A DNA stretch of 64,000 nucleotides from Rhodanobacteraceae bacterium (lineage in GTDB: Bacteria > Pseudomonadota > Gammaproteobacteria > Xanthomonadales > SZUA-5). The number at the start of each line of letters is the position of its first letter. Within the stretch, counting starts at the first letter, position 1. A model generated the notes under the pieces. The model had not been told where the DNA came from and ran no database searches. It saw only the letters and a list, made by a program, of their open reading frames with translations. A program made the position numbers and the translations under genes. The stretch lies in assembly GCA_016713135.1 (NCBI GenBank), contig JADJPR010000012.1, positions 12,601 to 76,600 on the forward strand, read 5' to 3'. Below, piece by piece: positions 27,988-30,658 of the stretch.

Positions 27988-30279
27988 CTACGCCCCCCGC
28001 TCCACCCCATACACCCGCCATTCGCCCAGGCCGCCGGGCAGGCCGGCGAGGCCGCGGTCGGCGAAGCGCAGGCCGGAGCCGGCGACGAGGTCCTTGACGG
28101 TGCCTGAGACGAGCACCTGGCCGGGCGGCGCCAGTTGCGCCACCTCGCGGGCGATGTCCACCGCGATGCCGCCCATGCGTTCGCCGATCACATCGCATTC
28201 GCCAGTGTGCAGCCCGCAACGCAGCTCCACGCCGAGGCGCTGCGCGGCGGTGTGGATCGCGCAGGCGGCGCGGATCGCGCGCGCGGGGCCGTCGAAGCTG
28301 GCCAGCGCATGGCTCTCGCCGGTCTCGAACAAATGGCCGCGGAACAGGTCGATCTCCTTGCGCAGGAAGGTCTGCTGGCGCGCCAGGCGCTCGGCGTCGC
28401 TGGCCTGGCCGGAGGCACGCACCACCAGCACCGTGGCCAGCACGCGGTCGAAGCCCGACGCATGGCGGACGCCGGTGAGGAATTCCTCGATCTCGTCAAG
28501 GAACTCGTCCTGCGCGCCGACGAAAGGCAGGTGGTCCTCGCCCGGAAGCTCGACGAAGCGCGCGCCGGGAATGTTCTCCGCCAGGTAGCGGCCCTCTTCG
28601 ACCAGCAGGCAGCGGTCGCCACTGCGATGCAGCACCAGGGTCGGCACGCGCACGCTCGGCAGTACATGGCGGATGTCGATCTCGCTGTTCATGCGCGTCA
28701 GTGCCACCGCCGCCGCGGGGCTGGCGCCGCGGCGCAGGTAAGCGGCCCACCAGGCACGGAAGGCGGGATCGCCAGCCATGCCGGGGGCACGCACTTCCAG
28801 GCCCACCGGGCCGCCCCAGCGGCTGCGGATCTCGTCGAGGAAGGCATCGCGCTGCGCCTCGCTGGGCCCCCAGGGGTAGTCCGCGCTGCGCAAACGGCGC
28901 GCGTAGCTGCCCATCATCACCAGCGCGACGGTGCGCTCGGGATAGGTGGCGGCGAACAGGCTGCACATCGGCCCGCCCTCGGAGACGCCGCACAGCACCG
29001 CGCGCTGGCAGCCGGCCGCTTCCATCACCGCGCGCACATCGTCCATCCGCTGTTCGAGCGTGGGCAACTGCTCCGGCGGCACACGGTCGGACAAGCCGGT
29101 ACCGCGCTTGTCGAACAGGATCACACGCGCGAAACCGGCCAGCCGGCGCAGGAAGCGGGCGAAGGAGGGCTCGGTCCAGAAGTACTCCAGATGCGAGATC
29201 CAGCCCATCACGAAGACCAGGTCGATCGGCCCGTCGCCGACCACCTGGTAGGCGATGTTGACCTCGCCACTCAGGGTGTAGCGCACCTCCGGGATCTCGC
29301 ACGCAGCCTCCGGATCAGGTGGCGCCGGCTGGCGCGGCGCCGCGGACGGATTGGACAGCAGCAGGGAGGCGGCCACCTCGGTGGCGCTGCGGCCGTCGCG
29401 GACCTCGCCGGTGCGCGCGCGAAGGTCCAGGTCGCGCTGCAATTGCCGCAGGACCGGCAGCAGTTCGTCGGCCGCCGCCGGGCGCTGATCGCGGTCCTTG
29501 CGCAAGCAGCGTGCGACGAGAGCGTCGAGTTCGGCAGGCAGGCCCGCCACCCGCTGCGACAACGGCAGCGGCTGGCGCTCGAGCACCGCCGCGATCACAT
29601 CGCTGGCGGTGGCCCCGGTGAAGGGCGAGGCGCCCGAGAGCATCTCGTACACCAGCACCCCGAGGCTGAAAAGATCGCTGCGTGCGTCCACCGGCTGGCC
29701 GCGCGCCTGCTCCGGCGACATGTAGCTGGCGGTGCCCATGACCACGCCGGGGATGGTGTCGACGCCATCCGGATCGGCCGCCGCCAGCGGCTTGGCCAGG
29801 CCGAAATCGAGCAGCTTCAGCCAGCCGTCGGGCCGCAGCATGATGTTCTCGGGCTTGATGTCGCGGTGCACGATGCCCGCACTGTGCGCGGCCACCAAGG
29901 CGCCGACGAGTTGCACCGCGATGTCGATCGCCGCGGCCGGCGCCAGCGGTCCGCCCAGCAGGCGCGCGCGCAGCGACAGGCCTTCGATGTGCTCGGTGGC
30001 GATGTAATGGTGGCCGTCGAGTTCGCCGACCTCGTGCACGGTGATGATGTTCGGGTGGTTCAGCGCGCTGATCGCCCGTGCCTCGCGCACGAAGCGTCGC
30101 AACCACTCGCCATTGCGCGTGAACTTGCCGCTGAGCAGCTTCAACGCGACCTTGCGGTCGAGTTGGGTGTCGCGCGCGAGGTAGACCTTGCCCATGCCAC
30201 CGCTGCCGAGCAGCGCCAGCACCTCGTAGCGCCCGTGGATGGCGCCGGGGCGAACCGGTCCCGACCTGCGCGAGGGCAT
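27988..30279 (-). CDS. Ser/Thr protein kinase fused to an alpha/beta hydrolase and a degenerate class III cyclase-like domain
   Basis: Kinase motifs: GSGGMGKVY, VALKLL, HRDIKPENIML, DFGLAK, GTASYMSPEQ. Hydrolase motifs: FDKRGTGLSD and the nucleophile elbow GVSEGG. C-terminal 152 aa: LRCGLHTGECDVIGERMGGIAVDIARE, a cyclase fold. Confidence 0.85.
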   Translation of the reverse strand: MPSRRSGPVRPGAIHGRYEVLALLGSGGMGKVYLARDTQLDRKVALKLLSGKFTRNGEWLRRFVREARAISALNHPNIITVHEVGELDGHHYIATEHIEGLSLRARLLGGPLAPAAAIDIAVQLVGALVAAHSAGIVHRDIKPENIMLRPDGWLKLLDFGLAKPLAAADPDGVDTIPGVVMGTASYMSPEQARGQPVDARSDLFSLGVLVYEMLSGASPFTGATASDVIAAVLERQPLPLSQRVAGLPAELDALVARCLRKDRDQRPAAADELLPVLRQLQRDLDLRARTGEVRDGRSATEVAASLLLSNPSAAPRQPAPPDPEAACEIPEVRYTLSGEVNIAYQVVGDGPIDLVFVMGWISHLEYFWTEPSFARFLRRLAGFARVILFDKRGTGLSDRVPPEQLPTLEQRMDDVRAVMEAAGCQRAVLCGVSEGGPMCSLFAATYPERTVALVMMGSYARRLRSADYPWGPSEAQRDAFLDEIRSRWGGPVGLEVRAPGMAGDPAFRAWWAAYLRRGASPAAAVALTRMNSEIDIRHVLPSVRVPTLVLHRSGDRCLLVEEGRYLAENIPGARFVELPGEDHLPFVGAQDEFLDEIEEFLTGVRHASGFDRVLATVLVVRASGQASDAERLARQQTFLRKEIDLFRGHLFETGESHALASFDGPARAIRAACAIHTAAQRLGVELRCGLHTGECDVIGERMGGIAVDIAREVAQLAPPGQVLVSGTVKDLVAGSGLRFADRGLAGLPGGLGEWRVYGVERGA

Positions 30280-30658
30280 CGGCCTGGACCACGCGGTCCA
30301 AGCGCTCGGTCAGGGTCGGGGCGCGGCTGGTTCGATGTTCCGATTGCAGCAGCATGGGCGCCGCGAAGCGGTAACCTCGCCGCGGCACCGCCTCGATCAG
30401 CGGGCGCCCGTCCTCGCTCTCGCCGAGCACGCCGGAGAGCCAGTCGAGGTGTTCGTCGATGCTGTTCCCGTCGAACTGGACCTGAGCGTCCAGGGCGCGC
30501 CGGCTGAGCGGCTGCGGGTGATGCGAGACCAGCGCCACCAGCAGGTCGAAGGTGGCTGCCGCCAGCGGCACCGGCTGGCCGCCGCGCAGCAGCAGCCGCT
30601 GCGCCGTATCCAGGCGCCAGGGACCGAATTCGTACACAGGGCGCACCGTCGCGGGCAT
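30247..30658 (-). pseudogene. OmpR/PhoB-type winged-helix DNA-binding segment, out of frame with the downstream kinase ORF (probable N-terminus of the same gene)
   Basis: Starts MPATVRPVYEFGPWRLDTAQRLLLRGGQPVPLAAATFDLLVALV...PLIEAVPRRGYRF. This frame has no stop until 29315. The kinase frame has a stop at 30310-30312. Removing one C from the CCCC run (30247-30250) joins the two frames. Confidence 0.65.

Follow-up and report, generated by a model that had tools for sequence, protein, structure and literature searches.

In the window, the whole stretch of 64,000 nucleotides analysed here from a Rhodanobacteraceae bacterium, a winged-helix reading frame on the minus strand runs directly into a Ser/Thr kinase ORF that begins in another frame. 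The question raised by this locus is whether it represents one regulator gene broken by a single base, an error of the assembly, a site of recoding, or two separate genes. The source is an NCBI metagenome-assembled genome (MAG; Rhodanobacteraceae bacterium, locus tags IPK27_*), in which the locus lies on a contig of 282,657 bp.

The reading frames and the site of the break

Translation confirmed the arrangement described in the first-pass annotation. The winged-helix ORF, of the OmpR/PhoB type, starts at ATG 30658, and its frame stays open as Arg-, Ala- and Gly-rich nonsense to a stop at 29315–29317. The kinase ORF (763 aa) occupies the next frame, which carries a TGA at 30312–30310, and runs from ATG 30279 to 27988. 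By a codon-usage scan, the coding signal in the winged-helix frame ends at about 30254. The 763-aa ORF was accepted by PGAP and deposited as MBK8068165.1, "alpha/beta fold hydrolase", and no protein corresponding to the winged-helix part is on record for the source MAG.

The four domains were found in one ORF in more than 100 homologs of 886–940 aa from Xanthomonadales/Rhodanobacteraceae and Acidobacteriota. At least five short-read assemblies made independently (L001, L084–L087), of strains about 98% identical to the window, contain intact ORFs of 886–888 aa, and the gene is also intact in two genomes with 91% identity (L002 and L003). The winged-helix part shares 93–98% identity with the N-terminal ends of P0001 and P0002, both intact orthologs, and the syntenic orthologs are all fused in a single ORF. 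The orthologs thus bear out the proposal of one gene of ~889 aa, with winged-helix, Ser/Thr kinase, alpha/beta-hydrolase and cyclase-like parts, broken by a single-base indel; the orthologs in two separate genes that would have spoken against it were not what the comparison returned. The combination of domains had been called unusual, but clusters with exactly this architecture number more than 100 at 90% identity.

When the DNA was aligned with the intact orthologs L001, L002 and L003, the extra base fell at window position 30280 ± 2, gene column 380. The junction reads CAGGCCGATGCCC in the window versus CAGGCCG-CGCCC in L001 and GTCGCGA-TGCCC in L002, and the same single insertion appeared in the window when aligned to L084. 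The edges of the tblastn HSPs agree with this position, the winged-helix part stopping at 30281 and the kinase part beginning at 30279. The extra base sits in the linker, between Ala126 (GCC, 30283–30281) and ATG 30279. The coordinates of all features are given in Table 1.

Table 1. Features of the regulator locus and its divergent neighbour, in window coordinates.
Feature	Position	Strand	Remarks
Winged helix and first part of the disordered linker	30281..30658	-	Codons 1-126 of the ancestral gene; domain at residues about 4-107
Extra base, the true frame break	30280..30280	-	Insertion relative to all orthologs; placement ambiguous within 30279-30283
Out-of-frame continuation of the winged-helix frame, noncoding in that frame	29315..30279	-	321 nonsense codons before the first stop
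C4 run	30247..30250	-	Read as cgC CCC, coding for Arg-Pro in the conserved RPG
ORF of 763 aa (linker end, kinase, alpha/beta hydrolase, cyclase-homology domain)	27988..30279	-	Identical to P0122
Hanks-type Ser/Thr kinase domain	29470..30228	-	Residues 144-396 of the repaired protein
Alpha/beta-hydrolase domain with intact Ser-Asp-His triad	28522..29220	-	Residues 480-712
Degenerate class III cyclase-homology domain	28003..28452	-	Residues about 736-885
Divergent intergenic region between the regulator and TonB-dependent receptor genes	30659..30948	.	290 bp; alignment of five orthologous regions
TonB-dependent receptor MBK8068166.1	30949..33792	+	Divergently transcribed; candidate regulatory target

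The break had earlier been assigned to the C4 run. Deletion of one C from this CCCC (plus-strand GGGG, 30247–30250) does yield an ORF of 889 aa reading ...LAQVGTGSPGAIHGRYEV, and a single-base frame break is real, but the insertion lies 30 nt 5′ of the run. The same CCCC is present in the intact, 98%-identical ortholog L001, where it codes for the conserved Arg-Pro-Gly; RPG or KPG is kept family-wide, and the run is ancestral and coding. The 11 codons from 30279 to the run are likewise read in the kinase frame throughout the family (MPSRRSGPVRPG; family consensus ..R....KPG..GRYE). The C4 run was accordingly ruled out as the indel site. High-GC DNA offers many positions at which an indel would restore a frame, and only comparison with orthologs finds the true one; in the present case the comparison shifted the site by 30 nt and took away the argument for slippage.

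Domains of the repaired protein

The intact protein is a cytoplasmic signalling regulator of ~889 aa, with a winged helix, a disordered linker, a kinase and a LipJ-like module in that order. The N-terminal domain matched Pfam Trans_reg_C at residues 27–98 marginally (26.3 bits against a cut-off of 26.2), whereas relatives in the family score up to 73 bits. The DNA-binding domains of OmpR, RstA and CadC were matched in the PDB (best 1.8e-7), and AF2 pLDDT was about 90 at residues 4–107 and below 50 at 108–131. In the Rhodanobacteraceae clade the recognition helix reads NSIDEHLDWLSG versus NLAQHISMLRK in the family consensus. DNA binding is not assured, because the usual basic residues of this helix are lost in the clade, in which their replacement is conserved. 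An N-terminal Trans_reg_C is shared with OmpR, PhoB and CadC, and paralogous LipJ-like proteins carry a winged helix alone or a winged helix with BTAD, as in SARP/EmbR-type regulators. In EmbR, an OmpR-type domain is coupled to signalling by Ser/Thr kinases. The present protein differs from the OmpR, SARP and EmbR types in having its kinase in cis and in lacking receiver, BTAD and FHA domains.

The kinase domain was assigned to Pfam Pkinase at residues 144–396 (4e-50, 171 bits, cut-off 31.7). The GxGxxG, VALK Lys, HRD, DFG and SPE motifs of Hanks-type kinases are invariant in 108 homologs, and an active PknB-like Ser/Thr kinase is predicted. The fold is that of PknB (Foldseek TM 0.91, 40% identity to the kinase domain), with all catalytic motifs. 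In contrast to PknB-type kinases, there is no transmembrane helix and no PASTA or other extracellular sensor, and the domain is placed between a DNA-binding domain and the LipJ-like module.

The hydrolase domain matched Pfam Abhydrolase_1 at residues 480–712 (5e-13). Its triad, made up of the Ser of GVSEGG, the Asp of HRSGD (D681) and the His of DHLP (H709), is conserved in 104–108 of the 108 homologs. The C-terminal domain stayed below threshold for Pfam Guanylate_cyc at residues 804–881 (16.8 against 21.9) and matched the cyclase domain of Rv1900c/LipJ (PDB 1YBT) at 2.7e-20. Residues of a competent class III cyclase are replaced at both metal-binding positions and at that of the transition-state Asn. 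The first metal-binding Asp is Arg in the window and is lost in 106 of 108 homologs (R, K, Q or H in 104, Asp in 2). The second is Ser in the window, and 42 of the 108 retain Asp. At the place of the transition-state Asn the window has Asp, and 98 of 108 have E or D. The cyclase domain is on these alignments predicted to be catalytically dead, and cAMP synthesis is not expected, because the metal-binding aspartates align to Arg and Ser.

For the C-terminal half the closest known protein is LipJ (Rv1900c) of Mycobacterium tuberculosis, an alpha/beta hydrolase joined to a class III adenylyl cyclase (PDB 1YBT/1YBU). Residues 453–884 are collinear with the whole NCBIfam model NF058673 (1e-108, positions 5–448 of 449), but the score of 364 bits against an equivalog cut-off of 800 marks a homologous module, not an equivalog, and LipJ differs also in that no winged helix and kinase are fused in front. 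Plant hydrolases of the KAI2/D14 receptor type were among the PDB sequence matches (1e-13 to 1e-9), a similarity only at the level of the generic fold. Receptor-type alpha/beta hydrolases, of which Bacillus subtilis RsbQ is another, likewise have an intact triad within a signalling protein; they offer an analogy for mechanism, with no membership claimed.

Origin of the extra base

A natural pair of genes, one for a small winged-helix protein and the next for a kinase-hydrolase, has next to no probability. Kinase-first relatives lacking the winged helix do exist elsewhere, but at this locus the frame runs on for 321 codons past the winged-helix domain before a stop, every syntenic ortholog is fused, and the break is a difference of 1 nt in otherwise collinear DNA; this reading was refuted by the ortholog comparison. 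Very improbable, too, is a programmed +1 ribosomal frameshift or transcriptional slippage that restores the full-length protein, whether at the C4 run or at the true junction. Two points alone favour it: the winged-helix frame meets no stop close by, and 30 nt beyond the junction there is a CCC-C run. Against this, the more than 100 homologs all do without a shift, the break is not conserved, the intact 98%-identical ortholog holds the same CCCC in frame, and a shift at the run would replace 11 conserved linker residues. At the junction, GCC-G-ATG is not slippery and permits no tRNA re-pairing, the 0-frame has no adjacent stop at which ribosomes could stall, and the fold of the RNA beyond the junction is no more stable than that of shuffled sequences (z = −0.24). 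A conserved break, a slippery sequence and a stimulatory element were thus all absent, and the translational frameshifting listed among the initial options is left without footing.

Between the two readings that remain, we lean towards the extra base being an error introduced into the metagenome assembly at the consensus or polishing stage, the organism probably making the full-length protein; that the sequence comes from a MAG is one point in favour. A real and very recent frameshift that splits the gene, amounting to a loss of function or to an ongoing fission of domains, is a serious possibility rated somewhat below even. It would leave a winged helix followed by 321 nonsense residues and, if ATG 30279 initiates, a kinase-hydrolase-pseudocyclase of 763 aa lacking the DNA-binding domain. 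In its favour, the break is in the deposited sequence, with the shorter ORF accepted by PGAP. ATG 30279 is in-frame Met127 of the 91%-identical ortholog, so that the downstream product would start inside the disordered linker, just ahead of the kinase domain, and such a fragment could fold and work, since winged-helix-free architectures exist. On the other side, ATG 30279 has a poor ribosome-binding site (AGG only 3 nt upstream), ribosomes in the winged-helix frame would run on for 965 nt, and the close relatives are all intact. Derived changes in the lineage of the window are absent from the winged-helix part and number three elsewhere in the gene, all synonymous, and there is no other indel. 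There is no decay following inactivation, because these three synonymous changes are the only derived ones besides the extra base; further lesions and relaxed selection, as in a decaying pseudogene, were absent in the window gene.

A second isolated frame break of 1 nt, seen as a missing A at 20439/20440, was found 10 kb away, at about 20439, in a TetR gene next to an RND efflux operon, and 2 of the 14 genes compared with L002 are thereby broken. This proportion exceeds the expectation for true pseudogenes in a free-living bacterium and is more typical of consensus error. The identity of the second gene speaks for real mutation, TetR repressor genes next to efflux operons being often inactivated by selection. 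Neither indel lies in a homopolymer, the commonest context of long-read errors, which counts against an error and for a real frameshift; the MAG is one that we take, by its accession and locus-tag series, to come from a Nanopore-based study. Strain polymorphisms cluster around the extra base, where CAGGCCG of the L001 type is joined in the window to ATGCCCTCG of the L002 type, and this may be a context in which consensus calling from mixed strains goes wrong. An error context at a methylation motif (CCAGG) was considered for the insertion and dropped, as the TetR site is without such a motif.

It also counts against an error that no further frame break was detected in all 64 kb by overlapping ORF pairs and a codon-usage scan, in which each flagged case was an antisense shadow or a normal gene. 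Nor is the window generally ridden with indels, because L094, a contig of 6.1 kb that belongs to another assembly and is 99.1% identical, aligns without any gap; it ends some 320 nt before the site. Among the contigs sharing the neighbouring 141-aa protein, none was found that carries an independently assembled copy of this strain across the break; they have a prophage at that place or break off about 320 nt before it (L094 and L096). Two pattern scans of metagenomes for the break gave nothing, or three chance matches.

The family and its possible mode of action

The gene is divergent from a TonB-dependent receptor gene, and this neighbour is conserved in Xanthomonadales, down to 72% identity. 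The alignment of the five intergenic regions revealed a conserved AT-rich motif, GTGAATATTTTGTAAACA, at 30793–30810, which occurs once in the window and is a candidate promoter or operator. A promoter and terminator scan of the locus found nothing.

At 50% identity, 4,362 clusters contain the module of hydrolase and cyclase-like domains, joined to winged-helix, BTAD, kinase or AAA domains. Architectures free of the winged helix occur naturally, as kinase, hydrolase and cyclase-like domains in 713–846 aa, and a variant with the winged helix and without the kinase (L008) was among the matches listed in a contig scan with the repaired protein. No experimental work on the module and its fusions was found in the literature, and no papers on this architecture.

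A mode of action may be depicted as follows: The hydrolase domain would bind or cleave a small ligand, and the dead cyclase domain would give dimerisation. Kinase autophosphorylation may be under the control of this dimerisation, and phosphorylation would then gate binding of the winged helix to DNA, for which the promoter of the divergent TonB-dependent receptor gene is the probable site. The LipJ-like hydrolase and dead-cyclase module, with thousands of proteins, might on this scheme define an unrecognised class of one-component regulators, in which a receptor-type alpha/beta hydrolase senses a small molecule and pseudo-cyclase dimerisation and a cis kinase switch the winged helix over neighbouring TonB-dependent uptake, the break here being a natural separation of output from sensor kinase. 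We consider this rather unlikely, and to the question of module function the window adds nothing unique.

The locus belongs to a widespread, uncharacterised family and presents an ordinary indel in an ordinary gene. As the deposited record omits the DNA-binding domain, the correct description is that of a frame-broken or mis-assembled winged-helix, kinase and LipJ-like regulator of 889 aa.

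Frame break and gene integrity

The frames at the regulator locus are as the first-pass annotation had read them, and translation confirmed that dropping one C from the CCCC run gives an 889-aa ORF. The indel itself, however, had been placed at this run, which is the wrong position. In DNA alignments against L001, a ~98% identical strain, and the NCBI assemblies L002 and L003, only one difference disturbed the frame: at gene column 380 the window has an extra base. Here the window reads CAGGCCGATGCCC, L001 CAGGCCG-CGCCC and L002 GTCGCGA-TGCCC. Comparison with L084, another ~98% identical strain, revealed the same single extra base. 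By tblastn, the winged-helix segment stops at 30281 and the kinase segment begins at 30279, leaving 30280 as the orphan base. The C4 run lies 30 nt 3′ of the extra base and is unchanged in the intact L001, where it codes for the Arg-Pro of R-P-G. Since all relatives use the kinase frame for the stretch from 30279 to the run (homolog P0002, MPSRRSGPVRPG; family consensus ...KPG..GRYE), the proposed repair restores the ORF at the wrong site, and it would swap out 11 conserved linker residues.

Features of the regulator locus, the repaired protein and other genes of the window
Feature	Position	Strand	Observation
Winged-helix ORF	ATG 30658 to stop 29315-29317	minus	~126 sensible residues, then Arg/Ala/Gly-rich nonsense (translation)
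763-aa kinase-frame ORF	ATG 30279 to 27988	minus	frame next to the winged-helix one
TGA preceding the 763-aa ORF	30312-30310	minus	kinase frame
C4 run	30247-30250	minus	GGGG on the plus strand
AT-rich 18-mer	30793-30810	minus	regulator/TonB-receptor divergent spacer
Trans_reg_C	residues 27-98		Pfam, 26.3 bits, right at gathering score
Pkinase	residues 144-396		Pfam, 4e-50
Abhydrolase_1	residues 480-712		Pfam
Guanylate_cyc	residues 804-881		Pfam, sub-threshold
TetR/AcrR gene	19942-20579	plus	single-base deletion at ~20439/20440 relative to L002
RND efflux operon	20768-26691		downstream of the TetR/AcrR gene
TPR/sulfotransferase gene	34368-34553	minus	stretch within the gene with 2-nt and 1-nt deletions, 185 nt apart, vs L084
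Secreted repeat protein gene	51926-55981	plus	paralog of the next
Secreted repeat protein gene	56221-59601	plus	paralog of the preceding

Full-length homologs of the repaired protein (886-974 aa, ~100% coverage) fell into more than 100 clusters, mostly from Acidobacteriota and additionally from Xanthomonadales/Rhodanobacteraceae, the nearest being P0001 (98% identity, 888 aa) and P0002 (91%, 888 aa). The architecture has also been catalogued many times by automatic annotation (e.g. JGI names), so the domain combination is not the unusual one it was taken for. The gene was intact in L001 and L084-L087, from five independent short-read metagenome assemblies, and in L002 and L003; in all of these it is a single ORF, one gene and not two.

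P0122, deposited as MBK8068165.1 on a 282,657-bp contig, matches the 763-aa ORF residue for residue, and the exact sequence is thus already in NCBI, mis-described as an alpha/beta fold hydrolase. Its neighbours are MBK8068164.1 (IPK27_11225) and MBK8068166.1 (TonB-dependent receptor), and these consecutive accessions suggest that the winged-helix part has no annotated protein; ORFs in the winged-helix frame were likewise absent from the protein collection. The MBK80... accessions and IPK.. tags probably belong to the Danish activated-sludge MAG series. The Danish activated-sludge MAGs were generated by Nanopore assembly with Illumina polishing (PMC8012365).

The conserved flanks of the gene are a TonB-dependent receptor on one side and 141-aa and 103-aa ORFs with an RND pump on the other. 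In ~98% identical strains (L084-L086 and L092-L095), a Mu-like prophage with Mor, DUF2786 and D12 methyltransferase separates the regulator and 141-aa genes, and a DUF1223 gene is located beside the TonB receptor; the window, compared at 27770-27990 and ~33887-33990, contains neither. The deletions in the TPR/sulfotransferase gene compensate each other, and the frame is continuous relative to L002, which makes L084 or local variability the odd one out. The TetR/AcrR protein is deposited truncated (MBK8068158.1, 167 aa vs 210-218 aa in relatives). A C-terminal region, ...GGLNFGGLID...GGYHATHPFGGVSGFAAFC..., is conserved between the two adjacent secreted repeat proteins (~1,100-1,350 aa).

Origin of the extra base

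We lean towards an artefact as the origin of the extra base. All close relatives are intact. When substitutions are polarised by L001 and L002, just three derived changes, all synonymous, fall on the window lineage across the whole gene, and the winged-helix part has none, which argues against decay after a break. Polymorphism in the gene peaks where the extra base falls, and there the haplotype seems to switch, the window being L001-like upstream and L002-like downstream, and mixed-strain consensus calling may fail at such a junction. The TetR gene carries a second lone 1-base break, so that two of 14 compared genes are broken. Both indels, however, are outside homopolymers, and a young real frameshift mutation is given somewhat less than an even chance. 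The window is otherwise clean, with zero gaps across 6.1 kb relative to the 99.1%-identical contig L094, and a codon-usage scan detected no more breaks. The ATG at 30279 moreover corresponds to Met127 of the 91% ortholog, in frame and just ahead of the kinase domain, and relatives without a winged helix occur naturally. TetR repressors of efflux pumps are frequent targets of selection, which also counts for mutation. An independent assembly of the same strain spanning the break was sought, and none reaches the site.

Translational frameshifting, also proposed earlier, found no support, and recoding that rescues the full-length protein is very unlikely: no ortholog requires a shift, tRNA re-pairing is impossible at the junction GCC-G-ATG, the 0-frame has no stop codon close to the junction for ribosome stalling, the downstream RNA is not more structured than shuffles (z = -0.24), and a shift in the C4 run would put wrong amino acids at conserved positions.

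Domains, the LipJ-like module and its possible target

All four domains proposed earlier are real. Besides the Pfam matches, residues 453-884 span the whole LipJ model of NCBIfam at 1e-108, the last domain matched the solved Rv1900c/LipJ cyclase domain (1YBT) at 2.7e-20, and the N-terminus matched the DNA-binding domains of OmpR, RstA and CadC (best E-value 1.8e-7). AlphaFold predicts the intact 98% ortholog as four confident domains separated by low-confidence linkers (108-131 and 418-450), and the modelled kinase superposes on PknB with a TM of 0.91. Among characterised proteins, the C-terminal module is closest to LipJ/Rv1900c, the kinase to PknB and the N-terminus to OmpR/CadC.

Among 108 full-length homologs the kinase motifs are invariant and the hydrolase Ser-Asp-His triad invariant or almost so. 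In the cyclase-homology domain, the first metal-binding Asp is gone in 106 (R/K/Q/H in 104), the second is retained in only 42, and E or D replaces the transition-state Asn in 98; this loss of catalytic residues marks the last domain as a predicted pseudo-cyclase. The C-terminal module, which scores far under the LipJ equivalog cut-off and lacks the cyclase catalytic residues, is on sequence grounds a LipJ-module homolog but not an equivalog, and it is not expected to work as a cyclase. In the window's clade the recognition helix is without its usual basic residues, a caveat on DNA binding by the winged helix.

With 4,362 clusters at 50% identity containing it (E <= 1e-30), the hydrolase and cyclase-homology module is a widespread building block (L008; P0180-P0329). 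Architectures read in ten of the clusters and in the DNA of locus L008 comprised the stand-alone, LipJ-like form and fusions to a winged helix alone (P0180; also L008 2896-4650, plus strand), to BTAD with the winged helix detected or not, as in SARP regulators, to a kinase alone, to kinase and winged helix in reversed order, and to AAA_16 with TPR. The repeated pairing with OmpR-type DNA-binding domains argues for a sensory or regulatory unit that may drive transcriptional output. The hydrolase domain would bind or hydrolyse a ligand, the pseudo-cyclase would dimerise, the kinase would autophosphorylate and DNA binding by the winged helix would thereby be controlled.

In Xanthomonadales, a divergent TonB-dependent receptor still adjoins the regulator gene where identity is as low as 72%; in the Acidobacteriota compared, this neighbourhood is not conserved. 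The 18-mer GTGAATATTTTGTAAACA is unique within the window (genome 70% GC) and is kept in orthologous spacers despite divergence elsewhere (L088, 72%-identity ortholog), and is a candidate operator or promoter. Together, the conserved neighbour and the AT-rich 18-mer make the receptor promoter the best candidate for the regulator's target.

A literature search found no experimental work on the winged-helix/kinase/hydrolase/cyclase-like architecture. The locus shows an ordinary 1-base frame break, and the gene belongs to a widespread, experimentally uncharacterised family; the corrected break site and the corrected annotation are of practical value.
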